This document shows, piece by piece, positions 42,946-59,980 of a DNA stretch of 64,000 nt; position 1 is the first letter of the stretch, and every line of letters begins with the position of its first letter. The position numbers were made by a program, and so were the translations under genes. This stretch comes from Gammaproteobacteria bacterium (GTDB lineage Bacteria > Pseudomonadota > Gammaproteobacteria > Pseudomonadales > Halieaceae): positions 39,251-103,250 of the forward strand of contig JANSYN010000010.1 of the NCBI GenBank assembly GCA_024742415.1, read 5' to 3'. The notes beneath the pieces are model-generated. The model made no database searches, was not told the DNA's origin, and was given only the letters and a program-made list of their open reading frames with translations.

Positions 42946-44139
42946 TCAGTCCGTTGTGGGTGCGCGGCGCAGGTGCTCCAGCGCATGCATCACCCCGCGC
43001 AGTTCCGCGAGTCCTTTCATGCGCCCCCCGAAGGAGTAGCCGGGGTTCAGGCCGGCCTGTCCGATCTCATCGGCCATGGTGTGGCCATGATCCGGTCGCA
43101 TCGGGATGAGATCCAGGCGCCCCTGCGCGCGGCGGTTGTCTTCTTCATCCAGCAGCGCGGCGATCAGGCCGACCATGTCGTTATCGCCGTCCAGGTGTTC
43201 GGATTCAAAGAAAGAGCCGTCGTCCTCGCGCCTGATATTGCGCAGGTGCACAAAATGAATGCGCGGCCCAAACTCACGCACCATGGCAATGAGATCGTTG
43301 TCGGCGCGTGCACCGAATGAGCCGGCACACAGCGTGATGCCATTGTGCATGCTCGGTGCTGCGTCCAGCAACTGGCGCGCGTCTTCAGCGGTCGATACCA
43401 CCCGGGGCAAACCAAACAGGGAGAATGGCGGGTCGTCCGGGTGGATGCACATTCTGACGCCGGCTTCCTCAGCGACCGGTATGATCTCGTGCAGGAAGGC
43501 AAACAGGTTGTCGCGCATGCCCTGCGTCCCCAGGGCAATGAACTGTGCAATGGCCGCACGAATGCTGTCCCGGTCGTAGGAACCCTCACCGCCGGGCAGC
43601 CCCGCAATAATGTTTTTTTCCAGTTGCTCGCGCTGCTGTGTCGTCATGGCATCGAGGCGCTGTTTTGCGCGCGCCAGCACCTCGGGCGTGTAGTCCTGCT
43701 CTGCGCCACTGCGCTGCAGTACGTAGACATCGTAGGCCGCAAAGTCGGACATCTCGAACCGCAGGGCGCGTGACGCGTTGGGCAATTCGTAGTCCAGGTT
43801 GGTACGCGTCCAGTCAACCACCGGCATGAAGTTATAGCACACGACCTTGATGCCGGCCGCGCCGACGTTGCGTACGGAGGTTTTGTAGTTCTCCAGAAGC
43901 TCGGTGTAGTTGCCGCTGCGCGTTTTGAGATCGTTATGCAGCGGAATGCTCTCCACCACCGACCACTGCAGCCCGTGCGCTTCGATTTCCTGTTTGCGCT
44001 GCTCAATCTCGCGCAGTAGCCAGGCGTCACCGGTGGGCACGTGATGCAATGAAGTCACGATTCCCGTAGCGCCAGCCTGCACGATGTTGGTCAGGCTGAC
44101 CGGGTCATTGGGACCGAACCAGCGCCAGGTTTGCTGCAT
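42946..44139 (-). CDS. uxuA: Mannonate dehydratase
   Basis: MQQTWRWFGP, WSVVESIP, CYNFMPVVDWTRT, IHPDDPP, HFVHLRN and RPDHGH. Confidence 0.96.
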   Translation of the reverse strand: MQQTWRWFGPNDPVSLTNIVQAGATGIVTSLHHVPTGDAWLLREIEQRKQEIEAHGLQWSVVESIPLHNDLKTRSGNYTELLENYKTSVRNVGAAGIKVVCYNFMPVVDWTRTNLDYELPNASRALRFEMSDFAAYDVYVLQRSGAEQDYTPEVLARAKQRLDAMTTQQREQLEKNIIAGLPGGEGSYDRDSIRAAIAQFIALGTQGMRDNLFAFLHEIIPVAEEAGVRMCIHPDDPPFSLFGLPRVVSTAEDARQLLDAAPSMHNGITLCAGSFGARADNDLIAMVREFGPRIHFVHLRNIRREDDGSFFESEHLDGDNDMVGLIAALLDEEDNRRAQGRLDLIPMRPDHGHTMADEIGQAGLNPGYSFGGRMKGLAELRGVMHALEHLRRAPTTD

Positions 44140-44155
44140 GTCTGTGAGTGCTCCG

Positions 44156-45151
44156 CTAATAAGTGCTGCGTGATAGATGCCCGTTGCCCGCTGCCGGGAG
44201 GATAGCACCGTGCTGTTGCACCACCTGTGCCGCCAGCGCCTGCGCACAGTGTACCGCGTGTTGCAGCGCCGCGCCGCGCAGTCGCGCGGCAATGTAGCCT
44301 GCGTTGAACGCATCGCCGGCGCCCGTGGTGTCAACGGCCGCGACCGGGGCTGCCTGCAGGCAGACACTGTCACTGCCAGAGAAGGCGTGTGTGGTCAGCG
44401 CGCTCCCCTTTATCACGATCTCATCGATGTTGTAGTCGGCATAGAAAGCATGGCAATCCTGGGCAGAGACACTGCCCCACAGGGATTGTTCGTCATCCAG
44501 GGTGGGAAACACACTGCTGCAGAACGGCAGTACCGAGCGCAGGTAGTGCTGCGCCTGTTCGGCTGAGTCCCACAGGACTGGCCTGTAGTTGGGATCAAAC
44601 AGGATCTGGCAGTTGCGCGAGCGCAGTGCGCGCAGCAGGCTGACCAGGTTGGCGTGGTCGGCGCGGGTGATCGCAACGGTGATACCGCTGAAATAAAAAT
44701 GCGTGGTGTTGCCCAGGTCCGGCACCTGCGCGAAGCATTCGCGCGCCGGCGAGTGCGCGCGCTCGTAATTGAACGAGCGTTCTCCCCCGGCGTCATTGCT
44801 GATGGTGTAGCGCCCGGCCGTGCGGCCCGGCCAGCGGGTGACCAGGTGCGTATCGATGTGCTCGGCGCGCAGCGCGGCAAGGATGTCACCAGAGGCAGGG
44901 TCATCGCCCAGGCGTGTCAGGTAGCTTACCGGCAGGCCGCTACGCGCCAGGTAGACGGCGGTGTTGTACGTGTCCCCGGCAACGCTGGCACGACGCTGTG
45001 CTGCCTGGCCGGCACTGCGGTGTGCGCCCGATTCAGGTGCGCCACAGTCGCCAGGAATGGCAGGGTGCCCGGAAGGCGACGGCGCAACAGCGTCGATGGC
45101 CGCGTTTGCGGTTATTTCTATCATCGCTTCGCCGGCACAGCAGATTTGCAT
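44156..45151 (-). CDS. kdgK: 2-keto-3-deoxygluconate kinase (PfkB family)
   Basis: GEAMIE, GDTYNTAVYLAR, FDPNYRP.LW and VDTTGAGDAFNAG; next to uxuA. Confidence 0.88.
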   Translation of the reverse strand: MQICCAGEAMIEITANAAIDAVAPSPSGHPAIPGDCGAPESGAHRSAGQAAQRRASVAGDTYNTAVYLARSGLPVSYLTRLGDDPASGDILAALRAEHIDTHLVTRWPGRTAGRYTISNDAGGERSFNYERAHSPARECFAQVPDLGNTTHFYFSGITVAITRADHANLVSLLRALRSRNCQILFDPNYRPVLWDSAEQAQHYLRSVLPFCSSVFPTLDDEQSLWGSVSAQDCHAFYADYNIDEIVIKGSALTTHAFSGSDSVCLQAAPVAAVDTTGAGDAFNAGYIAARLRGAALQHAVHCAQALAAQVVQQHGAILPAAGNGHLSRSTY

Positions 45152-45196: not shown

Positions 45197-45225
45197 TTGA
45201 CAGGCCAGCCGCCAGATTCTAGATT
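45197..45225 (+). promoter_or_regulatory. Sigma70-type promoter for the oxidoreductase-uxaC operon
   Basis: TTGACA (45197-45202), 17-bp spacer, TAGATT (45220-45225). Confidence 0.7.
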
Positions 45226-45238
45226 GGCCTGACCAATT
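45222..45238. promoter_or_regulatory. FadR-subfamily GntR operator overlapping the -10 box
   Basis: GATTGGCCTGACCAATT matches the AATTGGN5CCAATT type of PdhR/LldR/UxuR-like regulators, and a FadR-type gene lies in the same operon. Confidence 0.7.
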
Positions 45239-45359
45239 CGCCCGACCGTAGTTTGACGCAGGCCCGTACCGAAGACAAGGCGCCTCACAACGCTGTGGCG
45301 ACTGCCGGGCGGGCAAGGCAGGCCCTGGCGATCCAACGGGCACAACAGGAGAGAACCTC

Positions 45360-46514
45360 ATGCAACAGGCAGGCCCGGTTCGCCTGGGCGTAGTGGGGCC
45401 AGGCAATATCGGTCGCAAACACATCGATAACGTGGTTGCCGGCCACGTGCCGGAGTGCGCGATCACTGCGCTGTGCTCGCGCCACCCCCCCGACGCGGCA
45501 ATAGCGCCGGGTGCACAGCACTTTAGCTCGCTCGAAGCGCTGCTGGACAGCGGTCGCTGTGATGCGGTCATTGTGGCGACGCCCACCTGCAATCATCTTC
45601 AGGCAGGGGCGGCGGTGCTGCGCAGCGGCCTGCACCTGATGATGGAGAAACCTCTTGGCCTGTCTATCGCCGAAGGGGAGGCGCTGCTGGCGCAGCAGGG
45701 TCCGGCGCAGGTTTTCGCGCTGATGCTCAACCAGCGCACCGATCCGCTGTTCACGGCAATGCGCGATTGCATCGATTCGGGGCAGCTCGGAGAGCTAACG
45801 CGCACGCAGTGGACGATGACCCACTGGTTTCGGCCCGAGGTGTATTTCAAGGTCAGTGACTGGCGCGCCACATGGAAGGGAGAGGGCGGCGGCCTGCTGC
45901 TCAACCAGTGTATTCACAACCTGGATATTTACCAGTGGCTGTGCGGTATGCCGGCCTCGCTGCACGCTTTTTGCCGCTTCGGGCGCTACCACGATATCGA
46001 AGTGGAAGATGAGGTCAGCGCCTTTTTCAGCTATGCCAGTGGTGCCAGCGGGGTTTTTGTAGGGTCCACTGGCGAATCTCCCGGTGTCAATCGCTTTGAT
46101 GTGATCGGTGACAGTGGCAGCCTGTGCTTCGATGGTGAGCGGTTGCTGCTGACCCAAAACGCCCAATCGACACAGCAGTACAGCCGCACCACCCGCGACA
46201 TGTTTGGCCAGCCGCCATCGCACACTCGCGATATTACGCCGGAGCGTGCCGTCAATCAGCACGCCATCGTGCTGGACAACTTTGTGCAGGCCATACGCAA
46301 CGACGAGCCCTTGATTGCGCCGGCGCGTGAGGGCCTGAATTCCCTGGCACTGGCGAATGCGATGTTGTTGTCGAGCTGGGAGAACACCGCCGTGGACCTG
46401 CCGCTGGATGCGGCGCGCTACCAGCAGGCGCTGGAACAGCGCATGGCCGTATCGCAGTTGCGCAAGAAGCAGGAAATCAGCGCCACTATCGACATGGACG
46501 CCTCGTTTCGCTGA
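45360..46514 (+). CDS. Gfo/Idh/MocA family oxidoreductase
   Basis: GVVGPGNIG, ATP, MEKP, WRATWKGEGGGLLLNQCIH.LD. Confidence 0.9.
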   Translation: MQQAGPVRLGVVGPGNIGRKHIDNVVAGHVPECAITALCSRHPPDAAIAPGAQHFSSLEALLDSGRCDAVIVATPTCNHLQAGAAVLRSGLHLMMEKPLGLSIAEGEALLAQQGPAQVFALMLNQRTDPLFTAMRDCIDSGQLGELTRTQWTMTHWFRPEVYFKVSDWRATWKGEGGGLLLNQCIHNLDIYQWLCGMPASLHAFCRFGRYHDIEVEDEVSAFFSYASGASGVFVGSTGESPGVNRFDVIGDSGSLCFDGERLLLTQNAQSTQQYSRTTRDMFGQPPSHTRDITPERAVNQHAIVLDNFVQAIRNDEPLIAPAREGLNSLALANAMLLSSWENTAVDLPLDAARYQQALEQRMAVSQLRKKQEISATIDMDASFR

Positions 46515-46541: not shown

Positions 46542-47897
46542 ATGACAAGCGACGCGCAACAACTCTCACGGCTCGCGGCAATGGGTCCATTGCAACGGGT
46601 GCCAGGCTACGTGCGACTTAGCGGCCCCGGCTGGCTGCAAGGTGCCATGACGCTGGGCGGTGGCAGCGCCATTACATCGCTAACGATTGGCGCGGTGTAC
46701 GGCTACGAATTGCTCTGGGTGCAACCGCTGTCGATGTTGATCGGTTGCATCATGTTATTTGCGCTGTCGCACCAGACCCTCAGCACCGGCGTAAAACCGT
46801 TTGCCGCCATGCGCGATCACGTCAACCCCCAGTTGGCGTGGCTGTGGGCGCTGGCGGCGCTGGCCTCGAGTATCATCTGGGGCTTCTCGCACTACCCGCT
46901 GTCTGCCGGCATGCTCGAAGAGATCATCGCAGTGAGCAGCGGGTTCAGTTTGCAGGACTCGCCCGGCATGGGCCGCGAGTTGTATCTGTTTGCGCTGGCG
47001 CTGCTGGTCTGGGCGATCTGCGCCTATACCGCCTGGCATTACGGTGCTGGCGGTCGTGCGGTAACCGTGTTTGAAAGTGCAATAAAAGTGCTCAGTTGCA
47101 TGATTGTCTTGTCGTTTGCGTGGGTCGTCATTACCGCCAGTGCCGCCGGGCAGATTGACTGGGGCGCGGCGCTGGCAGGGTATGTGCCTGGCAATCTGCC
47201 CTCTGACAGGGCTGGCGTCACCACCATCATGGCGGCACTGGGAACAGCCGTGGGTATCAATATGACCTTTGTCTATGGCTACACCCTGCTGGATAAGGGC
47301 TGGGGGCCTGCGCACCGGGAACTGGCGCGCTGGGATATCGTCATGGGTCTGGTCATTCCCTACATCCTGGTAACCGGCTTGATATCCATCGCTGCCGCCG
47401 GGGCGTTTTACGGTTCGGACCTCAGTGTGCAGGGCAAGCTCGCCCCGGCGCAGGCCGCCGCGATGTTCAGCGATGCAGGTATGGGGCCGGTAACGGGGCG
47501 CCTGGTGTTTGCCCTGGGTGTGCTGGGCATGGCGGTGGGTTCGCTGGTGATGCACATGCTGTGTTGCGGTGCGGCTGCACGCGCCCTGTTTAACCTGGAG
47601 CACAACGCATTGCAGTATCGCCTGGCCCTGCTGCTGCCAACGCCGGCGGTGCTGGGTGTGTTCCTGTGGTCGAGCATGGGCCCATATGTCATCCTGCCGA
47701 CCTCGGCCATCTGTGGTTTTCTGTTGCCCATCGCCTATGTAGGCTGGTTGTTCCTGAACAACAACAGCGCCTACCTGGGCGATGACCAGCCGCGCGGTGG
47801 GCGGCGTGTGGTATTCAACTGTGCGATGCTGCTGTGCATCCTGACCGTACTGGCCAGTGTGACCTACAGCACCGGCGTCGCGCTGGGCTGGTTTTAA
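46542..47897 (+). CDS. NRAMP/LeuT-fold secondary transporter lacking the DPGN motif
   Basis: GPGWLQGAMTLGGGS TM1, GAVYGYELLWVQPL, GTAVGINMTF; about 11 TM segments. Confidence 0.75.
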   Translation: MTSDAQQLSRLAAMGPLQRVPGYVRLSGPGWLQGAMTLGGGSAITSLTIGAVYGYELLWVQPLSMLIGCIMLFALSHQTLSTGVKPFAAMRDHVNPQLAWLWALAALASSIIWGFSHYPLSAGMLEEIIAVSSGFSLQDSPGMGRELYLFALALLVWAICAYTAWHYGAGGRAVTVFESAIKVLSCMIVLSFAWVVITASAAGQIDWGAALAGYVPGNLPSDRAGVTTIMAALGTAVGINMTFVYGYTLLDKGWGPAHRELARWDIVMGLVIPYILVTGLISIAAAGAFYGSDLSVQGKLAPAQAAAMFSDAGMGPVTGRLVFALGVLGMAVGSLVMHMLCCGAAARALFNLEHNALQYRLALLLPTPAVLGVFLWSSMGPYVILPTSAICGFLLPIAYVGWLFLNNNSAYLGDDQPRGGRRVVFNCAMLLCILTVLASVTYSTGVALGWF

Positions 47898-47927
47898 AGC
47901 CCAATGAACAAGCGGACACAATAGATC

Positions 47928-49028
47928 ATGGTGGACATCAAGGACGGGGCAAGTTATGCGCCCACAGCGGCGGCCAGGAAGGTGGTTACCAGGGGCGAGT
48001 TTGTGTTTGCTGCGGCGTTTCTTGACCACGGCCACATCTACGGCCAGACCAACGGCCTGCGTGACGCCGGAGCCCACCTCAAGTGGGTATACGATCCGGA
48101 TCCGGCGCGCCTGGAAAAGTTCGTGCAAACCTACCCCGGCGTGCAGGTTGCGCCGAGCTTTGACTGCATCTTACAGGACGCCCAGGTGCAGCTGGTGGCG
48201 AGCGCCGCAGTACCTGACCAGCGCGCCCGCGTTGGCCTGCAGGTGTTGCAACACGGCAAGGACTACTTCACCGATAAATCGCCCTTTACTGAGCTGTCGC
48301 AGCTCGAGCAAGTGCAGGCGGTGGTTGACCAGACCAATGGTAAATACCTTGTTTACTACGCAGAGCGCGTGCACAACGATGCCGCATGGCAGGCCGGTGA
48401 GATGATCAAGGACGGTGCGATCGGCCAGGTCCTGCAGGTGTTGAACCTGGCGCCGCATCGCCTGGCGAAAGCAACGCGACCTGACTGGTTTTTTGACAAG
48501 GCGCGCTATGGCGGCATCATTACCGATATTGGCTCACACCAGGTGGAACAGTTTCTCACCTATGCCGGTTGTGCAGCAGCCAGTGTGAATTTTGCGCGGG
48601 TCGAAAATTTCGGCCACCCCGACAAGCCCGGCTTTGAGGATTTTGGCGAGTTTTCGCTCACGGGCGACAACGGCGCGTCGTTTTATAGCCGGGTTGACTG
48701 GTATACCCCCGAGGGCCTGCGCGCCTGGGGTGATGGACGTACCTTTATCGTGGGCACGCAGGGCACTTTGGAGCTGCGCAAGTATCTTGATGTCGCGCGT
48801 CAGGCGCCGGCATCCAAACTGTTGTTGGTCGATGGCGCAGGTGAACAGGAAATCGACTGTCTCGGGCAGACGGGCTTTCCTTTCTTTGGCCAGTTGATCC
48901 TCGACTGCCTGCAGCGCAGCGAACAGGCGATGACGCAGGCGCACGCCTTTGCAGCCGCGCGACTGAGTATGCAGGCGCAGGCTGTGGCAGACGCCAGGGC
49001 GACCGCGACCGTAGGCGCAGCGCAGTAA
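47928..49028 (+). CDS. Gfo/Idh/MocA family oxidoreductase
   Basis: LDHGHIYG, GKDYFTDKSP, RPDWFFDK.RYGGIITDIGSHQ.EQFL and WGDGRTFI.GT.GT.E.RK. Confidence 0.88.
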   Translation: MVDIKDGASYAPTAAARKVVTRGEFVFAAAFLDHGHIYGQTNGLRDAGAHLKWVYDPDPARLEKFVQTYPGVQVAPSFDCILQDAQVQLVASAAVPDQRARVGLQVLQHGKDYFTDKSPFTELSQLEQVQAVVDQTNGKYLVYYAERVHNDAAWQAGEMIKDGAIGQVLQVLNLAPHRLAKATRPDWFFDKARYGGIITDIGSHQVEQFLTYAGCAAASVNFARVENFGHPDKPGFEDFGEFSLTGDNGASFYSRVDWYTPEGLRAWGDGRTFIVGTQGTLELRKYLDVARQAPASKLLLVDGAGEQEIDCLGQTGFPFFGQLILDCLQRSEQAMTQAHAFAAARLSMQAQAVADARATATVGAAQ

Positions 49029-49723
49029 TGTCGCAGCCGGACGAAAAAATTCAGCGCCTGTACCTTAAGCTGGCCCAGCAGTTGAGCGAGCGCATCGCGC
49101 GCGGCGATTACCCTGTGGGCGAACGCCTGCCCTCGGAACGTGACCTGGCGGCACAGTTTGGTGTCAGTCGCCCAACGGTGCGTGAGGCGATTATTGCGCT
49201 GGAGATCGCCGGCCTGGTGGATGTGCGCATAGGGTCGGGGGTGTACGTGCAAGAGCAGCGTGCGTCCCAGGCAGCGCTGCTGGAGGTGCAGGGCCCCGGC
49301 CCCTTTGAAATTCTCGATGCGCGCAAACTGATAGAAGGCGAGACCTGCGCACTGGCGGCGCAGCACGCCAGCGAGCAACAGCTCCAGGCCCTGCAGGCGG
49401 TTGTGGACGAAATGACCGAGGAAAACCGACGCGAGGCGGTGACAGAGCGCGCCGACGAGCACTTTCACTGGCTCATTGCACAGGCTGCGGGCAACAGTGC
49501 GCTGGCTGCCACCGTACACTGGCTGTGGCAGTTGCGCAGCCAATCTGGCATCAGTGCGCATTTTCAGCAGCGCGTTCGCGCTGAAGGCATACGACCCATC
49601 GTGGAGGACCACCAGGCCATCATCGATGCCCTGGTAAGGCGCGATGCAGCTGCAGCACGCATCGCCATGCAGGCGCACCTGCAACGGGTAGCCGACCACT
49701 TACTGGAGGTCATGCAACCATGA
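49028..49723 (+). CDS. GntR/FadR family regulator (ExuR/UxuR-like)
   Basis: GERLPSERDLA.QFGVSRPTVREA HTH plus an FCD domain (DEHFH..IA.AAGN). Confidence 0.92.
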   Translation: MSQPDEKIQRLYLKLAQQLSERIARGDYPVGERLPSERDLAAQFGVSRPTVREAIIALEIAGLVDVRIGSGVYVQEQRASQAALLEVQGPGPFEILDARKLIEGETCALAAQHASEQQLQALQAVVDEMTEENRREAVTERADEHFHWLIAQAAGNSALAATVHWLWQLRSQSGISAHFQQRVRAEGIRPIVEDHQAIIDALVRRDAAAARIAMQAHLQRVADHLLEVMQP

Positions 49724-51141
49724 GTCTGCACCCGGATCGCCTGTTCGCGAGCTGTCCGCAGCAGCGGGCGCTGGCGCGTGAACTGTACGAGGCGGTCAAG
49801 GCGCTGCCGATTGTCAGTCCGCACGGCCACACCGATGCGCGCTGGTTCGCTGACAACCGCGCGTTTCCCAATGCCACTACATTGTTACTACAGCCCGACC
49901 ACTACTTGTTGCGCATGCTCTACAGTCAGGGCGTGAGCTTGTCGGCACTGGGTATTGCGCCACTCGACACAGCGGCTGCCGGCGCGCCGCGGGCGAGTAT
50001 CGCCGACCCTGAGCAGGCCTGGCTGTGCTTTGCTGACCACTACCACCTGTTTCGCGGCACGCCCACGCAGCAATGGATGGACCACGTCTTTAGCGAAGTG
50101 TTCGACCTGCCCGAGCGATTTTGCGCCGACAACGCCCGTGAATTCTACGCCGCGATCAACCGCGCCCTGGCCACACCGGCGTTTTTGCCGCGCGCGCTGT
50201 TTGAGCGCTTCAATATAGAGGTGCTGGCCACGACGGAGTCTCCCCTTGACACACTGCAGGCCCATCAGCGCCTGCGTGATGACCCCTGGCGCGGCAGAGT
50301 CATCACGGCGTTTCGGCCCGACCCGGTGCTGGACCCGGATTACGAGGGCTTTGCCGACAACATCCTGAAAATGGAGCAGCTCAGTGGTATTGCCTGCGAT
50401 ACCTGGCGCGGTTATCTGCAGGCGCTGCGTGAGCGGCGCCAGTTCTTTCGCAGCCTCGGTGCAACGTCAACCGACCATGGCCATCCGACACCGTTTACTG
50501 CCGACCTGCCACTGGCACAGTGTGAAACACTGTACGCTGGCGCCCTGGCGGGCTCGCTGTGTGCCGCAGATGCCGAGCTGTTTCGCGGACAGATGCTGCT
50601 GGAAATGGCGCAGATGTCACTGGACGATGGCCTGGTCATGCAGATCCATCCCGGCGTGTATCGCAACCATAACCCCAGTCTGTTCGCACATTACGGGCGT
50701 GATCGTGGTGCCGATATTCCCGGTGCTACCGAGTATGTACGCAACCTCAAGCCGCTGCTGGATAAAGTCGGCAACAACGCCGACTTCACATTGATACTGT
50801 TTACCCTGGACGAGGCCACCTACGCACGAGAACTGGCGCCCCTGGCGGGACACTACCCTGCGGTGCGCCTCGGCCCCCCGTGGTGGTTCCACGACAGCCC
50901 GGAAGGCATGTTGCGCTATCGCCAGCAGACCAGCGAGACAGCGGGTTTCTACAATACCGCCGGGTTCAATGACGACACGCGCGCGTTCCTGTCGATTCCA
51001 GCGCGGCACGACATGGCGCGGCGTATGGACTGCCGCTTTCTTGCGCAATGGGTGAGTGAGCATCGCCTGTGCATGGACGACGCACACGCCCTGGCGCGGG
51101 ATCTGGCAGGTGATCTTGCGCGCAAGGCCTACAGGCTGTAA
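49720..51141 (+). CDS. uxaC: Uronate (glucuronate) isomerase
   Basis: PIVSPHGH, PDHY..RMLYSQG, TDHGH, MQIHPG..RNHN, GPPWWF.DS and FNDDTRAF.SIPARHD. Confidence 0.96.
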   Translation: MSLHPDRLFASCPQQRALARELYEAVKALPIVSPHGHTDARWFADNRAFPNATTLLLQPDHYLLRMLYSQGVSLSALGIAPLDTAAAGAPRASIADPEQAWLCFADHYHLFRGTPTQQWMDHVFSEVFDLPERFCADNAREFYAAINRALATPAFLPRALFERFNIEVLATTESPLDTLQAHQRLRDDPWRGRVITAFRPDPVLDPDYEGFADNILKMEQLSGIACDTWRGYLQALRERRQFFRSLGATSTDHGHPTPFTADLPLAQCETLYAGALAGSLCAADAELFRGQMLLEMAQMSLDDGLVMQIHPGVYRNHNPSLFAHYGRDRGADIPGATEYVRNLKPLLDKVGNNADFTLILFTLDEATYARELAPLAGHYPAVRLGPPWWFHDSPEGMLRYRQQTSETAGFYNTAGFNDDTRAFLSIPARHDMARRMDCRFLAQWVSEHRLCMDDAHALARDLAGDLARKAYRL

Positions 51142-51188: not shown

Positions 51189-52643
51189 ATGCCTAGACTG
51201 TCTCCCGACACGCTGTGTGACGTAGCCCCCGAGGTACGCTTGCCAGCCTACGCGCGCGAGGCGGTGGGTGCGGGCATTGTGCACCTGGGCATAGGCGCAT
51301 TCCATCGCGCGCACCAGGCGCTGTATACCGACGAGCTACTGGCACGACACGGCGGTGACTGGGGCATCATTGGCGTGTCGTTGCGCAGCGCTTGCGTAGC
51401 GCAGCAGTTGCAGCCGCAGGCCGGTTTGTACTCGCTGCTGAGCGTCGATGCGCAGGGTCAGTCGCTGCGTGTCATCGGCGCCGTGCAGTCGGTACTGGTT
51501 GCCACCCGTGAGCCCGACGCCTTGGTGGCTGCCATTGCCGATCCCGCCATACAGGTGATTACGCTCACGATTACCGAGAAGGGCTACTGTATTGGTGCGG
51601 ATGGTCGCTCGCTGAATACCCGCCATGCCGATGTTGCCCATGATTTGCGCAATCCTGGCCACCCGCGCACGGCGCTGGGGTTTCTTGCGCTGGGTTTGCA
51701 TCGTCGAATGGCGCATGGCGGATCTGCACTGACGCTGCTCAGTTGTGACAACCTGGCACAGAACAGTCGCGTGTTGCGCGCGGTGTTGATCGATTACCTG
51801 CAGCGTACCTGGCCCGAGGTTGTGACATGGCTGGAACAGCGCGTGCGCTTTCCCTGCAGTGTGGTCGATCGCATTGTGCCTGCCATGACGGCAGCGCATC
51901 GTGAGCAGCAGGAGCAGGCGCTGGGTCTGTGCGATGCGGGTGCTGTTGCGGCAGAGCCGTTTTGCCAGTGGATTATTGAAGATGATTTTGCCGCGGCCCG
52001 GCCGCCCTGGGACGTCGCTGGTGCGCAGTTTGTGGACAGCGTTGCGCCCTATGAAGCGATCAAGCTGCGCCTGCTCAATGCCAGTCATAGTGCGATCGCC
52101 TGCCTCGGGCTGTTGGTCGGTGCGCAGACCGTCGATGCGGTCATGGCGCAGGCACCCCTGCGCGGTTTTATTGATGGGCTGATGACGCGCGAATTGATGC
52201 CCACGCTGCAGGTGCCGGCGCATTTCGATCTTGCGGCCTACAAAGACACCTTGTTACAACGTTTTGATAACCCCTGGCTGGCACATCGTTGCGCGCAGAT
52301 AGCGATGGACAGCAGCGAAAAAATTGCCCAGCGCTGGCTGCCCACGCTGCAAATTTCGCTGTCACCGGCACTGGTCGCGGCGCTTAGCCTGTGGTGCGCC
52401 ATGATGCTATTGACGGATACCGATGTGGAGGATTCGCAGGCAGGGCCGCTGTTACGCGCCCGTGCTTCGGGGGCAGCGCTGGCGCAGCGTATTGGCGATG
52501 TCCTGGCGTGTGCGCGCATAACGCCAGCAAGCGTTGCAGATTTTGATCATCTGCTGGCGATGCTGGTACGAAACCTCGACAACTACCAGCGCTGCGGCGT
52601 GTCCGGTGTGCTGGATGCGCCTGCCTCCCGGGCAACGGCCTAG
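51189..52643 (+). CDS. uxuB: D-mannonate oxidoreductase / mannitol dehydrogenase family
   Basis: IVHLGIGAFHRAHQA, TITEKGY, LSCDNL, VDRIVP, EPF.QW.IED, KLRLLNASHS and RFDNP.L.H...QIAMD. Confidence 0.88.
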   Translation: MPRLSPDTLCDVAPEVRLPAYAREAVGAGIVHLGIGAFHRAHQALYTDELLARHGGDWGIIGVSLRSACVAQQLQPQAGLYSLLSVDAQGQSLRVIGAVQSVLVATREPDALVAAIADPAIQVITLTITEKGYCIGADGRSLNTRHADVAHDLRNPGHPRTALGFLALGLHRRMAHGGSALTLLSCDNLAQNSRVLRAVLIDYLQRTWPEVVTWLEQRVRFPCSVVDRIVPAMTAAHREQQEQALGLCDAGAVAAEPFCQWIIEDDFAAARPPWDVAGAQFVDSVAPYEAIKLRLLNASHSAIACLGLLVGAQTVDAVMAQAPLRGFIDGLMTRELMPTLQVPAHFDLAAYKDTLLQRFDNPWLAHRCAQIAMDSSEKIAQRWLPTLQISLSPALVAALSLWCAMMLLTDTDVEDSQAGPLLRARASGAALAQRIGDVLACARITPASVADFDHLLAMLVRNLDNYQRCGVSGVLDAPASRATA

Positions 52644-52735: not shown

Positions 52736-55700
52736 GTGATAAAAAAACTCGCCACCGTGGGTGGACTGCTCGTACTGGTACTCATCGCCTGGCGCTTGCT
52801 GGGTGTGACCGAGGCGCCGACGTTCGTGCCCGAGGAGGGCTACACCGCACTGTATGACGGTCGCTCCCTGGCGGGTTGGCAAGTGGTCGGCGGTGGCGCA
52901 ACGTTCAGTGCGCAGGGCGAATCGATTGTCGGCCGTGTCGGGCCAGGAGAGAACACCTTCCTGCGTACGCAAGCAACCTTCGGCGATTTTTCCCTGAAGC
53001 TGCAGATGCGCTGGGATGAACCGGGTAACTCCGGCGTCATGTTTCGCGCCAACCAGCGTGGCGGTGACGGCCGGACCTACGGCTACCAGTATGAGCTGGA
53101 TGCCTCAGATCGCGCCTGGAGTGGCGGCATCTATGACGAGGCGCGCCGTGGCTGGCTGGCCAACCTGGAAAATAACGCCGCGGCGCGTGAGGCAATTCGG
53201 CTCGATGACTGGAACGATGTGGAGATCCAGGCACGCGGTGCCAGCTTGCAAACCTGGATTAACGGCGTGCCCGCCGCCGATATCGTTGACGGCCTGGATG
53301 CAAGGGGCTTTATTGCCCTGCAGGTACACAGCGGTAGCACCGGCGTGATGCGCTGGCGCCACATCCAGATCAAGGAATTACCCCCGACGCTGGTCGCCGG
53401 AGACAGCCTCGTGAGCGCTGCTGAATGGCGTGACGTGCCCGCCGGGATCAGCTTTGACAACAGCGCCATTCGCGGGCCCTCGCTTGCCCGGGACGAGTTG
53501 CTGGTATCTCGCCGCTTGTTCAATGACGCCATGATCCGAATGACGGTGCCCGCCTGTGAGCAGCCGACCATCGTACAACTGCGCCATCGCCTGGATAGCA
53601 GCACAGATGAGGCAGGTTTTGCCGAAGTGCGCATTTTTTCTGATCGTGCGCAGGCCAGGCTGGTCACGCGCGCGGGCGAGCGGCTGATGGACCCCATCCA
53701 GTTGCCGGCAGGCACCACGCATGAGTTTGTGGGTCTGACGCGCGAAGGCGAAGTGGCGTTGACCATTGGTGAGCAGGACGCTTTGCGCATCAGCGGTGCG
53801 GCGCTGCACGACCGCGGGCAGCTGCGTGTGCACCCCGCGCGCTGCGGCCAGGACTTCGTGATTGACGACCTGGCCTGGTACTCACTCAAACGCACCAGCG
53901 CAGAGCCCCTGTTTTACCAGACGCTTGAGGTACCGCCCGCACCGGTGCTGACGCCCGAGCAGGCCTTGCAGTCCTTTCACCTTGCGCCGGGCTTTGAGAT
54001 TGAACTGGTAGCGGCCGAGCCGCTGGTGGAAGACCCGGTCGCCATGGCCTGGGATGAGTATGGCCGGCTGTACGTGGTGGAGATGCGCGGTTACATGCCC
54101 GATGCCTATGGTACGGGTTCGCAGGAGCCGGTGGGGCAGGTCGTGCGCCTGGAAGATACTGACGGCGATGGTCGTATGGATACCAGCGAAGTTTTCCTCG
54201 GGCAGCTGGTCAACCCGCGTGCGGTCGCGGTGGTGAACGAGGGCATTTTGATTGGCGAACCGCCCAACCTGTGGCTGTGTGAACTGCCCGCGCACGATGC
54301 CCTGTGTACCAGCAAGCGACGTGTCGGCGGCTATGCCACCAACGTCGATACGGCCAATGTGGAGCACATGGAAAACGGCCTGCTGCCGGGGCTGGATAAC
54401 TGGCTCTACAACGCCAAATCCGATCGCCGATTGCGCCTTGTGGATGGAGCAATCGTTGCGCAGCAGGGTGTGAATCGTGGCCAGTGGGGCATTACCAAAG
54501 ACAACCTGGGGCGGCTGTTGTACAACCACAACTCAACGTGGGTGCAGGCGGATTTGTTTCAGGCTGAAGATATCGTCCTTCCCGATCGCAAAACCCCGGC
54601 CAGGGGAGTGGGCGTTAACCTGACCCCGCAGCCGGAAGTGTTTTCAGTACGCGTGAACCCGGGCGTAAACCGCGCGTATCTCGACGGGACCCTGCGTGAG
54701 GATGGGCGCCTGAATCGAACCACCGGCGTGAGCGGCCTGGTGGCCTATCGTGGTGACCAGTTTCCCGCGCGTTATGCCGGCGATGTGTTTGTGCCGGAAT
54801 CCGCCGGCAACGTGGTGGCGCAGTTTGCCGTGCAGCCCAGCGGTATGTCGCTGCAGGCACAGCAGCGCCTGTACCCGGATACCACCTGGGGCCAGCGCGA
54901 CTTTCTGGGGTCTACCGATGAACGCTTCCGTCCGGTGGATGCCAGCAACGGTCCGGACGGTGCCCTGTACATCATCGATATGTATCGCGGCATTATCCAG
55001 GATGACCACTTCCTGACGGACGAACTGCGCGAACAGATTTTCCAGCGCGGCCTGGATGCCCCCGTTGGTATGGGTCGCATCTGGCGAGTGCGTCACAGTG
55101 AAGGGGCCGAACGTTCCGCTGCGCCGGTGCTGGCTACTGCAAGCGATGCGCAGCTCGTTGCGGCGCTGTCGCATGGCAATGGCTGGGTGCGAGATACCGC
55201 ACAGCGGCTGTTGCTGGCCCGCGGTGACGCGGTGACCGGGCCACTGGCTGCGGTGGCGCGCACGGGTGAACAGCTGGCGGCGCTGCATGCACTGTGGACG
55301 CTGCACGGTCGCCACGAGCTCGATGCTGGCCTGGTGCAGTCGCTGCTTGGCCGCACCGATGAGCCACAGCTGCAGGTCAACGCCTTGCGTGCCGGCGCCA
55401 CGTTGTTGAGTGATGAGGCATTGCTGGCGCTGGAGCCGCTAACAAGGACACAGGAGAGTGTCGCCATGCAATGGGCTTTTGCGCTGTCGGGCAGGGCGCA
55501 GAACCCTCAGGTGCGCGCAGCCCTGGTGCGACTGCTGGAAGGTCACTGGGACAGCCCCTTCGTGAACCAGGCGGTAGTGCGTGCGGTGTATGGCCATGAA
55601 ACTGCGTTTTTGCAGGATGTGCTGCGCTCAGGTGTTGCAGATACACGTGGCAAGCCGCGCGTGGCCCTGTTGCGTGAGTTGGGTAGCAATGCCTACCTGA

Positions 55701-56653
55701 CCCTGCGCGGGGACCTCACGGCGACTGCTGCGGCGAATCCGCAGTTGACTGGCCTGCTCGAGCTGATCCAGTCACGCGCGGGAGCGCTGGCGTGGCAGCA
55801 GGTCGCCTTGCTTCAGGGCCTGAATCGCGTTGCCGACAGTGCCGGGTTTGTGCCGGCTGCGCTGGACGCGGCGCCCCCCATTTTTGCGGATGCGACGATC
55901 GGTGAAGACAACCCACTGTACAAGGCGCGCCTGGCAGGACGCCGTGCCTTCACCTGGCCGGGGGATGAACTGGCGCTGGGCATCACGCCACTGAGTCCCG
56001 AACAACTTAAATTACAGCAGCAGGGCGAGGCCTTTTATGTGCAATGTGCCGCCTGTCATGGCGATGATGGCAAGGGCATCAGCGGCCTGGCGCCGGCCCT
56101 GGCCGGGGCATCCTGGGTGACCGGCCCGCCGGAATGGCTCGGCCGCATTATCCTGCAGGGTCTGAAGGGGCCTATCGAGGTGAACGGCGAGGTCTTTGAT
56201 GGCGTCATGCCGGGGCATGGGCACCTGCCTGCCCTGGATGACGCAACGCTGGCGGGCCTGATGACGTATCTGCGCCGTAGTTGGGGTAATCGCGCCAACC
56301 CGGTGAGTGTGGCAGCGGCGGCGCAGATTCGGCAGTCCAGCGCGGATCGACAATCTCCCTGGACCGCCAGCGAACTGCAGGCGGTGGCCTATGACCGTGG
56401 CTACGCGCGTTTCGTGGGCCAATACAAGATCAGCTTCGTGACCTTTACGGTGACGCAGGAGCCCGATGGCCTGCACATGTCGGTGCCGATGTACGGCGCC
56501 GGCAAGTTAGAGCCACTGTCCGATACGCGCTTTGGCGCGGTTGCCGGCGGTGAGAAGGTCGAGGTGGAATTTGTGGTTGAAGACGACGGCAGCGTCGACA
56601 CGATGATCCTGCTGCGCCAGGGTGAACGCATTCCGGTGCCGCGCAAGGGGTAG
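52736..56653 (+). CDS. DUF1080 + PVC-type membrane-bound-dehydrogenase propeller + HEAT repeats + cytochrome c fusion protein
   Basis: N-terminal TM; DUF1080 motifs (GNSGVMFRA, WNDVEI, GFIALQVH); FHLAPGFEIELVAAEP..DPVAMAWD..GRLYVVEM; RFRPV....GPDGALYI.DMY; LSH.NGWVRDTAQRLL; CAACH...VMPG. Confidence 0.85.
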   Translation: MIKKLATVGGLLVLVLIAWRLLGVTEAPTFVPEEGYTALYDGRSLAGWQVVGGGATFSAQGESIVGRVGPGENTFLRTQATFGDFSLKLQMRWDEPGNSGVMFRANQRGGDGRTYGYQYELDASDRAWSGGIYDEARRGWLANLENNAAAREAIRLDDWNDVEIQARGASLQTWINGVPAADIVDGLDARGFIALQVHSGSTGVMRWRHIQIKELPPTLVAGDSLVSAAEWRDVPAGISFDNSAIRGPSLARDELLVSRRLFNDAMIRMTVPACEQPTIVQLRHRLDSSTDEAGFAEVRIFSDRAQARLVTRAGERLMDPIQLPAGTTHEFVGLTREGEVALTIGEQDALRISGAALHDRGQLRVHPARCGQDFVIDDLAWYSLKRTSAEPLFYQTLEVPPAPVLTPEQALQSFHLAPGFEIELVAAEPLVEDPVAMAWDEYGRLYVVEMRGYMPDAYGTGSQEPVGQVVRLEDTDGDGRMDTSEVFLGQLVNPRAVAVVNEGILIGEPPNLWLCELPAHDALCTSKRRVGGYATNVDTANVEHMENGLLPGLDNWLYNAKSDRRLRLVDGAIVAQQGVNRGQWGITKDNLGRLLYNHNSTWVQADLFQAEDIVLPDRKTPARGVGVNLTPQPEVFSVRVNPGVNRAYLDGTLREDGRLNRTTGVSGLVAYRGDQFPARYAGDVFVPESAGNVVAQFAVQPSGMSLQAQQRLYPDTTWGQRDFLGSTDERFRPVDASNGPDGALYIIDMYRGIIQDDHFLTDELREQIFQRGLDAPVGMGRIWRVRHSEGAERSAAPVLATASDAQLVAALSHGNGWVRDTAQRLLLARGDAVTGPLAAVARTGEQLAALHALWTLHGRHELDAGLVQSLLGRTDEPQLQVNALRAGATLLSDEALLALEPLTRTQESVAMQWAFALSGRAQNPQVRAALVRLLEGHWDSPFVNQAVVRAVYGHETAFLQDVLRSGVADTRGKPRVALLRELGSNAYLTLRGDLTATAAANPQLTGLLELIQSRAGALAWQQVALLQGLNRVADSAGFVPAALDAAPPIFADATIGEDNPLYKARLAGRRAFTWPGDELALGITPLSPEQLKLQQQGEAFYVQCAACHGDDGKGISGLAPALAGASWVTGPPEWLGRIILQGLKGPIEVNGEVFDGVMPGHGHLPALDDATLAGLMTYLRRSWGNRANPVSVAAAAQIRQSSADRQSPWTASELQAVAYDRGYARFVGQYKISFVTFTVTQEPDGLHMSVPMYGAGKLEPLSDTRFGAVAGGEKVEVEFVVEDDGSVDTMILLRQGERIPVPRKG

Positions 56654-57318: not shown

Positions 57319-59235
57319 ATGACGTGTTTTTTTCTTCCCAGGGCACTGCCGCTGGCCATGCTGGCTGCAACCGCCTGTATAACGGGGTCCGCAAGTGCCG
57401 CTACGCCGTCGGCGGAAGCGCCACCGGCGCAAATGGAGCAGTTGCTGGTGACCGGTAGCTACGCGCCCACGGCGGACATTACCGCATCGGTAACGGTGCT
57501 CGATGCGCAGCTGATTGCAGCGCTGAACAAGCGCAGCGTGGCCGCACTGCTGAAAACGGTTCCGGGCTTGCTGGTTGAGGAGCAAGGCGGCCCCGGCGGA
57601 CTGACCGCCGTTTCCATACGCGGTGGCGAGGCCAATTTCACGCTGGTGTTGCTGGACGGCGTTGCCTTGAATGATCCCACCAATACCCGTGGCGGTGGCT
57701 TCGATGTCGCCAACCTTAACCCGACGCAGATAGAACGTATCGAAGTGGTGCGCGGCGCGCAGTCGTCGATTTACGGGTCCGATGCGCTGGCGGGGGTGAT
57801 CAATATCATCTCAAGGAAGGCGCGAGCCGGGCATCAGCAGCGCGTCAATCTTGAGGTTGGGGAAGATGACTTTCGCGATGCCGGCATCAGCTTCAGCGGT
57901 GTGCACGCAGACCTTGATTATCGCCTTGCGCTAACCACGCGCGACGAGGGCGAGCCGGTGCCTGGCAGCACGCGCGAAAACGACAGCGCGCATCTGCACC
58001 TGGGTTGGCGCGTGAACCAGCAGCACACGCTCGCGGCAAACCTGCGCTATCAGCAGGGCGAGCGCAGTGCTTACCCGGAACAAAGCGGTGGCCCGGAGTT
58101 CGCCCTGATCGATGCGCTGGACCATGCCGAGTATGAAGACAGGATCATTGCGCTTGACTGGCGCGCTGCGCTTTCCCCTGCGTGGAACAGCACGCTTACA
58201 GCGCAGCGGCTGGAACACCATGAAGACGTGGATTCACCCGGCATACCGCCGTTCTCTGCTGTGCCGCCGAACGGCGCCCGCACGCAGTACACACGCGATG
58301 ACCTGCGTTGGATCAACAGCGTGCTACTGGCAGAACACTACCGGCTCGATACGGGCGGGGATTTGCGCCAGGAGCAGGGCCGGGCCGAGGGCTATGTCGA
58401 GTTCTTTGGCGATCGCATGCCCACCAACTTTGCGCTCGACAGAAACACCCTGGGTGTGTTCGCCACGCTGAGCGCCACGCCCGTCGCCTCAACGGTGTTT
58501 AACACCAGCGTGCGCTATGACGACCCGGAGGGCTTTTCCAGTGAGACGTCATGGCGCCTGGGCGTGCGACATGCCGTGACACCCACGCTGCACCTCAGCG
58601 CCAATTGGGGTGAAGCCTACAAGCTCCCCAGTTTTTTTGCGCTGGGCAACGCGCTGGTGGGCAATCCTGACCTCAAGCCCGAGAAGGCCACGGGCAGTGA
58701 CATAGGCCTGGAATGGGCGATCGAGCGCGGACTGCACCTCGATCTCACGCTGTTCTATAACGATTTCAAGGATCTGGTGGACTTCGACGACGCCACCTTC
58801 CGCAACGTCAATCGCGGTCAGGTGGAAACTCAGGGTGTTGAGATGGCCCTGGCCTATGCACCTTCCACCCGGCTCAGTGTCATTGGTACGGGCACCTATA
58901 CGGACATCGATGTGCGCGAAGACACCCGGCTGACGGGGCGTCCGCAGTGGAGCGCGGGCCTGGCGGTGCAGTGGCAACTCGCGCTGGCATGGGACACCAG
59001 CGTGGACTATCGTTACACCTCAGGGCAGTGGTCCATTTCGCGCCACACCGGGCAGGAGCGCGCCGCACGACTCGACGACTACTATCGCCTGGACTGGGTG
59101 CTGCGTTGGCAGGCGGCCGAGGGCGTACAACTGCGCGCATCGCTGGACAACCTGCTGGATGCACGTTACGACACAGCCGTTGGTTTTGCGGCACCCGGTC
59201 GCGCGGCCCGGTTTGGCGTGCAACTGGAATTCTAG
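57319..59235 (+). CDS. TonB-dependent receptor (compact, BtuB/CirA-like)
   Basis: Signal peptide, TonB-box-like EQLLVTGS, plug motif IERIEVVRGAQSSIYGSDALAGVINII, GNPDLKPE, DNLLD..Y and C-terminal Phe. Confidence 0.93.
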   Translation: MTCFFLPRALPLAMLAATACITGSASAATPSAEAPPAQMEQLLVTGSYAPTADITASVTVLDAQLIAALNKRSVAALLKTVPGLLVEEQGGPGGLTAVSIRGGEANFTLVLLDGVALNDPTNTRGGGFDVANLNPTQIERIEVVRGAQSSIYGSDALAGVINIISRKARAGHQQRVNLEVGEDDFRDAGISFSGVHADLDYRLALTTRDEGEPVPGSTRENDSAHLHLGWRVNQQHTLAANLRYQQGERSAYPEQSGGPEFALIDALDHAEYEDRIIALDWRAALSPAWNSTLTAQRLEHHEDVDSPGIPPFSAVPPNGARTQYTRDDLRWINSVLLAEHYRLDTGGDLRQEQGRAEGYVEFFGDRMPTNFALDRNTLGVFATLSATPVASTVFNTSVRYDDPEGFSSETSWRLGVRHAVTPTLHLSANWGEAYKLPSFFALGNALVGNPDLKPEKATGSDIGLEWAIERGLHLDLTLFYNDFKDLVDFDDATFRNVNRGQVETQGVEMALAYAPSTRLSVIGTGTYTDIDVREDTRLTGRPQWSAGLAVQWQLALAWDTSVDYRYTSGQWSISRHTGQERAARLDDYYRLDWVLRWQAAEGVQLRASLDNLLDARYDTAVGFAAPGRAARFGVQLEF

Positions 59236-59245
59236 GGTGGTGGGT

Positions 59246-59980
59246 ATGCGCAGTGTTGTAGTGATCCTTGTTGTCGCGTGGGCCGCAGTACTGGGTGGCT
59301 GTTCTGACGACGAGGTTATCGCGCCAGGGGAATGCGTGAACGCGCTCAGCGCGCAGGAGCAAACCGCGGGCTGGCGTTTGCTCTTTGACGGGCAATCCCT
59401 GGCGCAATGGCGCAGTTATCAGCACGATGAATTGAAAGAAGGCTGGGGTATCGAGAACGGCTGCCTGGCGCGTCTGGGACGCGCGGGTGACATTATCAGC
59501 CGCGAGCAGTTTGGTGACTTCGAGCTGAAACTGGAATGGCGGGTCTCTGCGGCCGGCAACAGCGGCATTTTTATTCGTGGAGACGAGTCCGGTCGCAGCA
59601 TTCACCACACCGGCTATGAAATGCAGGTACTGGATAACGCCGGGCATCGGGATGCCAAAGACCCGACGCACCGTGCCGGCGCGCTGTACGACATGATCGC
59701 CCCTGATCACGACACCACCCAACCTGTGGGCTACTGGAATCGCGTGCATATCGTTGCGCGCGGTCGCGTCGTGGAATTCTGGCTGAACGAGCGCCTGACC
59801 GCGCGCTTTGAACAGGGCAGCAGCGACTGGCAGGCGCGCTATGCGCGCAGCAAGTTCACTGACAGGCCGGATTATGGCAGCCTCCTGCGCGGCCATATTG
59901 GCTTTCAGGACCACTGGGACAAGGTCTGGTTTCGCAATATCCGGATTCTCACTGCCGACCAGGCGGGCCAAACAAACTGA
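59246..59980 (+). CDS. DUF1080 (3-keto-disaccharide hydrolase/lyase) lipoprotein
   Basis: Lipobox LGGC, LLFDGQSL..W, FELKLEW, GNSGIF, EMQVLD, GALYD, WNRVHI, GHIGFQDH and VWFRNIRI. Confidence 0.9.
   Translation: MRSVVVILVVAWAAVLGGCSDDEVIAPGECVNALSAQEQTAGWRLLFDGQSLAQWRSYQHDELKEGWGIENGCLARLGRAGDIISREQFGDFELKLEWRVSAAGNSGIFIRGDESGRSIHHTGYEMQVLDNAGHRDAKDPTHRAGALYDMIAPDHDTTQPVGYWNRVHIVARGRVVEFWLNERLTARFEQGSSDWQARYARSKFTDRPDYGSLLRGHIGFQDHWDKVWFRNIRILTADQAGQTN

Follow-up and report, generated by a model that had tools for sequence, protein, structure and literature searches.

Gene organization around the carrier

We analyzed a stretch of 64,000 nucleotides (the window) from contig JANSYN010000010.1 of a gammaproteobacterium of the family Halieaceae (assembly GCA_024742415.1), and in it a gene for a carrier of the NRAMP fold that lacks the NRAMP metal site. 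The gene (46542-47897, plus strand) is an open frame of 451 amino acids, with the ribosome-binding-site-like sequence GAAAGAGA 7-8 nt 5' of its ATG; the product belongs to Pfam family PF01566, has 11 predicted transmembrane (TM) helices and was modeled with AlphaFold 2 (AF2). An antisense frame at 46755-48128 is unsupported and looks like a shadow open reading frame (ORF) of high-GC DNA. The carrier is the sole PF01566 gene of the source genome, and the source bacterium is therefore without a canonical MntH.

The carrier gene stands between two plus-strand genes for cytoplasmic oxidoreductases of the Gfo/Idh/MocA type, here called Gfo1 (45360-46514), which resembles a glucuronide 3-dehydrogenase, and Gfo2 (47928-49028), an atypical member. 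They are followed on the same strand by a GntR/FCD regulator of ExuR/UxuR-like type (49028-49723; GntR and FCD domains; best NCBIfam match ExuR, 160 bits, below the cut-off of 396), the glucuronate isomerase UxaC (49720-51141; NF002794, 547 bits, above cut-off) and a UxuB-like fructuronate/mannonate oxidoreductase (51189-52643; N- and C-terminal Mannitol_dh domains; NF011611, 318 bits, below 603). Gaps of 27-30 nt flank the carrier, the regulator start overlaps the Gfo2 stop, the regulator gene and uxaC overlap by 4 nt, and from Gfo1 to uxuB all junctions are gaps of 27-48 nt or overlaps. An earlier note on this DNA had placed the carrier between two Gfo/Idh/MocA genes, upstream of the regulator, uxaC and uxuB, and had seen no ExuT, tripartite ATP-independent periplasmic (TRAP) or ATP-binding cassette (ABC) sugar transporter in the locus. 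Gene order and domain matches confirmed the arrangement, and domain searches found none of these transporters between 35.5 and 64 kb of the window.

Divergently from Gfo1, on the minus strand, lie the genes for the 2-dehydro-3-deoxygluconokinase KdgK (44156-45151; PfkB domain; NF052444, 215 bits, below 400) and the mannonate dehydratase UxuA (42946-44373; TIGR00695, 514 bits). As listed, the UxuA frame (475 aa from a GTG) is over-long and overlaps kdgK by about 220 nt; its Pfam match covers only residue 79 onward, which probably puts the real start about 78 codons further in. Beyond uxuB, three further plus-strand genes encode an exported DUF1080-DUF7133-cytochrome c protein of 1305 aa (52736-56653), which is co-operonic with the carrier in relatives, a TonB-dependent outer-membrane receptor (TBDR) of 638 aa (57319-59235), the only other transport component in the cluster, and a DUF1080 protein of the 3-keto-disaccharide hydrolase family (59159-59980; PF06439, 167 bits), whose true start is probably 3' of the TBDR stop. 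An Rfam search of positions 40-60 kb gave no match at E<=0.1, and thus no M-box or Mn riboswitch.

The canonical metal ligands are replaced in the carrier

The carrier scored above the cut-off of the Pfam Nramp model PF01566 (80.7 bits, E 1.4e-22, cut-off 29.8) and below every NCBIfam Nramp/MntH cut-off (NF037982, 37.4 vs 50; NF001923, 28.1 vs 430; TIGR01197, 17.7 vs 272.5). Its nearest solved sequence is EleNRMT (7QIA, E 1e-5). We aligned a profile of 58 family sequences to human NRAMP1, DMT1 and the Nramp protein of Bacteroides fragilis, and found that the family string GPGwLqsAlTLGgGs sits over GPGFLMSIAFLDPGN in TM1. In both this alignment and the one with EleNRMT, the D-P-G-N of TM1 falls on carrier residues G39-G40-G41-S42, and Asp55 of EleNRMT aligns with G39. 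The earlier note had reported that the TM1 string replaces DPGN. Residues 28-42 do read GPGWLQGAMTLGGGS, as quoted there, and the metal motif is gone; however, because the alignment puts DPGN opposite G39-G40-G41-S42, its true counterpart is the GGGS that closes the string and not the GPG that opens it.

In TM6, the A-x-x-M-P-H motif aligns with T235-A-V-G238-I239-N240 of the carrier, the family string tAVGiNmtF lying over GAVVMPHNLF. The profile alignment showed that this motif, with its Ala carbonyl and Met ligands and the His of the proton path, is not retained in the carrier. The replacements at the metal site are thus Asp by G39, Asn by S42, Met by G238 and His by N240. The TM3 Glu of the NRAMP proton network is also absent from the carrier, which has H117 at the position of the Glu in FSEF of EleNRMT and AEI of the B. 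fragilis Nramp, and the conserved TM8 Glu is Ala in the gammaproteobacterial clade of the carrier. The alignments of TM1, TM3 and TM6 indicate that all canonical metal ligands of the carrier are gone, and with the acids of TM1, TM3 and TM8 replaced, no conserved acidic position common to PF01566 transporters is left in this clade. The TM1 Asp is also kept in the Al3+ branch of PF01566. We considered the loss of E348 as a removed pocket charge and rejected it: the position aligns with the Glu of 'MEGF' at the end of TM8, which is conserved in the aligned NRAMP1 and EleNRMT and is probably distant from the substrate site.

The replaced site is a family trait

Using phmmer against 1.84 billion representatives, we detected 665 related proteins at E<=1e-3, 372 of them at E<=1e-10. 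Among the best 150 of the 665 matches, nearly all full-length representatives contain GPG[WYF]LQSA.TLG.G[ST]. At 50% identity the family forms about 370 clusters from many phyla with the signatures GPGWLQSA-TLGGGS and AVGINMTF; members come from the Gammaproteobacteria, Planctomycetota, Verrucomicrobiota, Bacteroidota, Acidobacteriota, Myxococcota, Omnitrophota, Gemmatimonadota and Chloroflexota. In alignments of 18 and 58 members, G39, V237, N240 and W254 are invariant, and T37, Q33, E178, K182 and D265 are invariant or conserved in at least 90%; G238 is invariant in the 18 sequences and conserved in at least 90% of the 58. These results indicate that the loss of metal ligands, as read from the alignments, is a trait of the family and not a one-off or chance event. 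Public labels on its members read 'divalent metal cation transporter' or 'manganese transport protein', and an ESM Atlas search with the carrier returned PF01566 clusters only.

At position 117, all of the 49 distant members have Gln, whereas the 42 gammaproteobacterial ones all have His; H77 and H338 are likewise enriched in the latter clade. Many family members are longer than the carrier, at 560-720 aa (P0137, P0141, P0151, P0160 and about 40 further representatives), and in these TM7 and TM8 are separated by an insertion of about 100-150 amino acids that is rich in charged side chains (alignment A1, columns ~390-495).

The carrier is predicted to keep the NRAMP fold

The AF2 model of the carrier, built from the family alignment, had a pLDDT of 91.7 and a pTM of 0.91. 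Its helices break in TM1 at L38-G39 and in TM6 at V237-G238, that is, at the invariant G39 and the family-conserved G238. Foldseek placed DraNramp (8e60) at the top, with TM scores of 0.75/0.85 and E 4.5e-13, together with EleNRMT (7qia; 0.75/0.84), at 16-19% identity, and amino-acid and other carriers of the APC superfamily scored at most 0.64 against the model. The model thus indicates an NRAMP fold without the NRAMP site.

One operator precedes the carrier operon and uxaC

A sigma-70-type promoter (TTGACA-17-TAGATT, 10/12 matches) is located at 45197-45225 on the plus strand, before the Gfo1 operon, and the TTGACA-N17-TAAATT layout is also found 5' of Gfo1 in loci L031, L032, L035, L036, L051 and L056. 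Its -10 box is overlapped by an operator of the FadR/ExuR-type GntR class, AGATTGGCCTGACCAATTC (45221-45239, without strand), in the intergenic region between the divergent kdgK and Gfo1. The operator has the form TGGC-N3-ACCA (TGGC-CTG-ACCA), which fits the TKGT/ACMA motif of the FadR subfamily with ExuR spacing; for regulators of this subfamily such as ExuR, a TKGT-N3-ACMA motif with 3-nt spacing has been reported (PMC4494728). TTGACA-N17-TAAATTGGCCTGACCA.TT is kept 5' of Gfo1 also in orthologue loci that have no uxaC within 10 kb.

We built a position weight matrix (PWM) of the operator from the orthologue locus sequences. The site at 45221-45239 is the only one of its kind in the window; across the source genome it ranks first by PWM and is the sole intergenic one, the second- and third-best sites being both intragenic and hence discarded. 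The carrier operon and uxaC each have the operator consensus AAATTGGCCTGACCAATTT upstream, also where the two are unlinked. Five genomes each contain 1-4 copies of the exact 13-mer ATTGGCCTGACCA, against an expectation of about 0.1 per genome by our own base-composition estimate. In genomes G098, G033 and G001 it stands before the carrier operon and again in an unlinked divergon of kdgK and uxaC-uxuB. The carrier operon of G033 begins with the DUF7133 gene, 27 nt downstream of the operator, and continues with Gfo1, the carrier and Gfo2; a TBDR gene in G033 and in G001 has the operator as well. Further sites precede a CE15 glucuronoyl esterase (G033), divergent pairs of a short-chain dehydrogenase/reductase and a TonB receptor (G033 and G001) and an operon of TRAP DctPQM and kdgK (G091). 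Since the operator is common to the carrier operon and the unlinked uxaC, these results indicate that the carrier module is part of a predicted glucuronate-type regulon even where it is unlinked to uxaC.

An ExuR-like Halieaceae regulon can be read from this one operator (window 45221-45239; L111-L118). A divergent DUF3604 and EamA pair in G098 is also preceded by the operator.

The carrier occurs together with Gfo1, Gfo2 and UxaC

Gene context was analyzed in 80 loci (28 gammaproteobacterial orthologue loci and 52 distant ones) and in a fixed sample of 121 Halieaceae genomes, with neighbor tables computed from domain envelopes. Within this family, the source bacterium is of Halioglobus type. 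The initial gene-cluster counts were underestimates, as the ORF caller often took the shadow frame antisense to the carrier (cluster c14) instead. The results showed that the carrier is present in 23 of the 121 Halieaceae genomes and that Gfo1 orthologues occur in exactly the same 23, adjacent to the carrier wherever both could be placed. UxaC is present in 39 of the 121, including 22 of the 23 carrier genomes, the exception being a genome that is 70% complete. Among the genomes with UxaC, the regulon TRAP is found in 10 of 16 without the carrier and in 5 of 22 with it, counts from related genomes that are indicative only.

The 28 orthologue loci (62-85% identity) retain the Gfo1-carrier-Gfo2 triad as far as their flanking sequence reaches, with Gfo2 directly 3' of the carrier in nearly all loci with flanking DNA. 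GntR, uxaC and uxuB adjoin in about 11 of the 28, and the DUF1080-DUF7133-cytochrome c gene in about 17. The tie to hexuronate genes is therefore one of shared operator and genome-level co-occurrence, not of fixed adjacency. In one further genome, G115, a single deletion of about 1.3 kb took the junction of Gfo1 and the carrier (C1:5704967-5706155, locus L025). It appears to remove the Gfo1 C-terminus and the first 277 carrier residues, and the remaining carrier fragment has a TAA stop; the module is decaying in this genome, which still has a broken-looking uxaC.

Distant homologues lie among oxidoreductive sugar genes

The distant set comprises 52 loci whose carriers are 35-47% identical to that of the window. 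The density of Gfo/Idh/MocA genes in these loci is 7.4 per 100 kb within 3 kb of the carrier vs 0.7 per 100 kb at 3-10 kb, and in 34 of the 52 a Gfo, DUF7133-cytochrome c, DUF1080, xylose-isomerase-type TIM-barrel, DUF993 or old yellow enzyme (OYE) gene lies within 3 kb. In polysaccharide utilization loci (PULs) of Bacteroidales, the order is SusC-SusD-DUF1080-Gfo (cytoplasmic)-carrier-xylose-isomerase-TIM barrel-BACON, and of the core genes with annotation only the carrier encodes a transporter, several ORFs on the flanks being unannotated. In Planctomycetota we found the order OYE-carrier-DUF993, and in 10 loci of Acidobacteriota and Myxococcota a divergent DUF7133-cytochrome c gene within 300 bp of the carrier. 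Distant carriers were also seen in a sulfatase context. The earlier note had asked whether homologues associate with sugar catabolic genes, and they do, as seen in the conserved triad, the same 23 genomes for Gfo1, uxaC in 22 of 23 and the Gfo enrichment in the distant loci.

As the distant loci are without uxaC but have oxidoreductive neighbors, the theme of the family is oxidoreductive catabolism of sugars or glycosides, with predicted substrates that probably differ by clade. The shift from Q117 to His in one clade agrees with clade-specific substrates.

In the Acidobacteriota loci L079, L081, L083, L087, L090, L096 and L101, the carrier is about 100 bp from the divergent DUF7133-cytochrome c gene. 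Most of them have a same-strand ABC system of ribose/fructose type (ATPase, permease, Peripla_BP_4) 3' of the carrier, and several have an AcrB-type pump upstream. We also considered whether the Alistipes Gfo beside the carrier is the published AL3 and rejected this, as it has no solved relative at E 1e-10.

Partner enzymes and other routes in the source genome

By far the best solved relative of Gfo1 is 8TDI, 'P2B11 glucuronide-3-dehydrogenase' (E 1.3e-65, 225 bits, residues 26-363). The two proteins have near-identical blocks around the reported active-site region, including SDWRATW.GEGGG.L.NQ..H.LD, and Gfo1 has GxGxxG at residues 12-17. The system of 8TDI cleaves alpha- and beta-glucuronides oxidatively, in a non-Koshland manner, via a 3-keto intermediate (bioRxiv 10.1101/2024.03.25.586180). 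The closest solved relatives of Gfo2 are 2P2S (E 2.5e-93) and 3U3X (E 1.2e-81), both uncharacterized structural-genomics entries. Gfo2 is without the Rossmann GxGxxG, and its N-terminus reads ...AAAFLDHGHIYGQ... No signal peptide was found in Gfo1 or Gfo2, and their substrate must therefore be imported.

The source genome (99.65% complete) gave no Pfam domain match to GH2, GH67, GH115 or CE15, and it has a complete glucuronate pathway despite this. It also has no ExuT equivalog, the best TIGR00893 matches lying elsewhere in the genome with at most 142 bits vs the cut-off of 395, and no orthologue of the regulon TRAP.

Comparison with known transporters and pathways

The carrier shares with the Mn2+/Fe2+:H+ symporters of the SLC11/NRAMP family (MntH, DMT1) the PF01566 domain, the 11-helix LeuT-type fold with unwound TM1 and TM6, and the GPG...LLWV framing of TM1. 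Unlike them, it has GGGS for DPGN, TAVGIN for AxxMPH and, across its family, Gln or His for the TM3 Glu; it is only 14-19% identical to the matched NRAMP chains and stands under a sugar-acid operator instead of metal control. Like the Mg2+ transporters of the NRMT type (EleNRMT, PDB 7QIA), it is without the Met and Asn of the NRAMP site; however, NRMT keeps the TM1 Asp (D55), where the carrier has G39, and the carrier has no M-box and lies in a sugar-catabolic context. The founding NRMT member is reportedly associated with an M-box Mg2+ riboswitch.

PF01566 has been described as comprising Slc11, NRMT and an 'orphan outgroup' without assigned function (Cellier, PMC9606685, PMC10606218), and it is only under this last name that the literature knows metal-site-less PF01566 branches. 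The carrier resembles that outgroup in belonging to PF01566 without the Slc11 metal/proton synapomorphy (as defined in PMC9606685). Compared by description only, it differs in that the outgroup keeps the ancestral TM3 Glu, whereas the carrier family has Gln, and His in this clade. The same two papers (PMC9606685, PMC10606218) give no substrate or genomic-context hypothesis for the outgroup. In the literature on Nramp together with glucuronate, DUF1080, 3-keto or PUL, we found no sugar substrate assigned to an NRAMP-family protein.

In its proposed role of feeding UxaC-UxuB-UxuA-KdgK under a repressor of ExuR/UxuR type, the carrier would be comparable to GusB/UidB and ExuT of E. coli, which belong to the major facilitator superfamily (MFS), and to the hexuronate TRAPs. 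It differs from these in having the LeuT/NRAMP fold instead of MFS or TRAP architecture, and an oxidative Gfo partner instead of a GH2 beta-glucuronidase. The locus is also like the clusters for 3-keto glycoside cleavage (BT2156-2160, Alistipes AL, P2B11), with a Gfo1 close to P2B11-Oxido1, a second oxidoreductase and DUF1080 proteins, and distant carriers are found in PULs with Gfo, DUF1080 and xylose-isomerase-TIM genes. The published clusters are without an NRAMP-like gene (bioRxiv 10.1101/2024.03.25.586180, Nasseri et al.; PMC8121099, Liu et al.), and the P2B11 fosmid has no nearby transporter (bioRxiv 10.1101/2024.03.25.586180). The P2B11 system requires two sugar-phosphate-isomerase-like proteins (Iso1 and Iso2), and none is present at the carrier locus.

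A proposed role in glucuronide uptake

The earlier note had suggested a repurposed LeuT-fold carrier for a sugar acid or an oxidized glycoside. The replacement of all four canonical metal ligands and the association with sugar genes support this prediction. It is very likely that the carrier does not transport transition metals, and its cargo is probably an organic solute derived from sugar. We slightly favor, as this cargo, a uronide or uronate that stands upstream of glucuronate. On balance, we propose from sequence and gene context that the carrier would bring glucuronides or related uronates across the inner membrane and into the cell, as a supply for oxidative deglycosylation and the UxaC pathway. 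As Gfo1 resembles a glucuronide 3-dehydrogenase, an oxidized glycoside or uronide would fit better than plain glucuronate. Substrate identity, transport direction and coupling ion are what we infer from these comparisons, and the glycine-rich unwound segments of TM1 and TM6, together with the clade-specific His117, may form a binding site for an anionic sugar.

In the proposed pathway, the substrate would pass the outer membrane, probably via the co-regulated TonB receptor, and the exported DUF1080-DUF7133-cytochrome c protein may act on it before uptake. The carrier, as a secondary carrier of NRAMP/LeuT fold that would no longer bind metal, could then bring the glucuronide, aldouronate or its 3-keto form into the cytoplasm, where Gfo1 and Gfo2 would free glucuronate by the oxidative 3-keto route and UxaC, UxuB, UxuA and KdgK would degrade it. 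The ExuR-like GntR protein is predicted to repress the whole set at the one operator that overlaps the promoter.

Several observations weigh against glucuronide import. Gfo2 is without a characterized relative, and a match of 225 bits to 8TDI is not enough on its own to settle the substrate of Gfo1. TIM-barrel partners of the Iso1/Iso2 type were not found between 35.5 and 64 kb, where the only secondary AP_endonuc_2 match is UxuA, the rest of the genome not having been searched. G091 has the carrier without the exact operator beside it, five genomes hold both the TRAP and the carrier, and since the compared genomes are related, the co-occurrence counts overstate independence. There is no uxaC link in any distant locus, and in Acidobacteriota the carrier is co-operonic with an ABC sugar transporter.

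The carrier might instead import free glucuronate or galacturonate as a non-orthologous substitute for ExuT or a hexuronate TRAP, with Gfo1 and Gfo2 serving a side branch such as reduction or oxidation of related uronates. Consistent with this, it is the sole inner-membrane transporter in the single-operator regulon of a source genome that has neither an ExuT equivalog nor an orthologue of the regulon TRAP, its distribution is partly complementary to the TRAP among genomes with UxaC, and UxaC is present in 22 of 23 carrier genomes. However, this explanation accounts neither for the carrier being always accompanied by Gfo1 and Gfo2, which are dispensable for glucuronate catabolism, nor for the likeness of Gfo1 to a glycoside (glucuronide) 3-dehydrogenase, and five genomes have both TRAP and carrier; we consider it unlikely. 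Less probable still is that the DUF1080-DUF7133-cytochrome c protein carries out an oxidation in the periplasm and that the carrier imports the product, be it a keto-sugar, a keto-uronate, a lactone or an aldonate, which Gfo1 and Gfo2 would reduce or convert to a substrate of UxaC or UxuB. The exported DUF7133 protein is indeed encoded first in the operator-controlled carrier operon of G033 and G001, about 17 of the 28 orthologue loci have its gene as a neighbor, and such genes diverge from the carrier in the 10 Acidobacteriota and Myxococcota loci. Yet DUF7133 proteins have no known activity, about 11 orthologue loci are without a DUF7133 gene nearby, and the Bacteroidales and Planctomycetota contexts are without DUF7133 altogether.

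It is highly improbable that the carrier is still a cation transporter with a remodeled site (for Mg2+, Mn2+, Co2+ or another ion) that supplies the nearby metal-dependent sugar enzymes. To our knowledge, every characterized PF01566 protein moves a metal cation (Mn/Fe, Mg or Al). The family membership and NRAMP fold of the carrier agree with such a role, as do its being the only PF01566 gene in the source genome, the conserved polar residues Q33, T37, S42, N240 and T242, and the stimulation of 3-keto glycoside enzymes by Mn2+ and Co2+ (bioRxiv 10.1101/2024.03.25.586180). Against it stand the loss of all canonical ligands, including the TM1 Asp that EleNRMT retains, the Gln or His at the TM3 Glu position and the Ala at the TM8 Glu in this clade, the absence of an M-box or Mn riboswitch between 40 and 60 kb, and control by a hexuronate-type operator instead of a metal regulator.

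Extending glucuronide import to the whole family, we tentatively suggest, at somewhat less than even confidence, that a branch of the NRAMP/SLC11 fold from at least six bacterial phyla (TLGGGS in TM1, AVGINMTF in TM6) carries sugars or glycosides, as the missing inner-membrane step of Gfo-dependent 3-keto glycoside breakdown, and that the Halieaceae clade, with His for the TM3 Gln, is specialized for glucuronides. If true, this would be the first organic (non-metal) cargo for PF01566 and an example of a LeuT-fold ion site rebuilt for an organic solute, and it would supply the uptake step for non-Koshland pathways of oxidative glycoside cleavage. Many annotations would then be wrong, covering hundreds of clusters at 50% identity in marine Gammaproteobacteria, Planctomycetota, Verrucomicrobiota, Bacteroidota and Acidobacteriota.

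The locus is unusually testable, with one operator, one operon, a named class of candidate substrates, a cultured relative that has the same locus, the Seongchinamella marina isolate of L036, and a source genome in which neither a competing glucuronidase domain nor a competing hexuronate transporter was detected. A Sedimentisphaerales cluster (L071:5566-16788) would make a good second system in which to test the role of the family; it contains two Gfo genes with Tat signals, one cytoplasmic Gfo gene, a URO-D-like gene and two carrier paralogues of 475 aa and 579 aa, the latter with the insertion.

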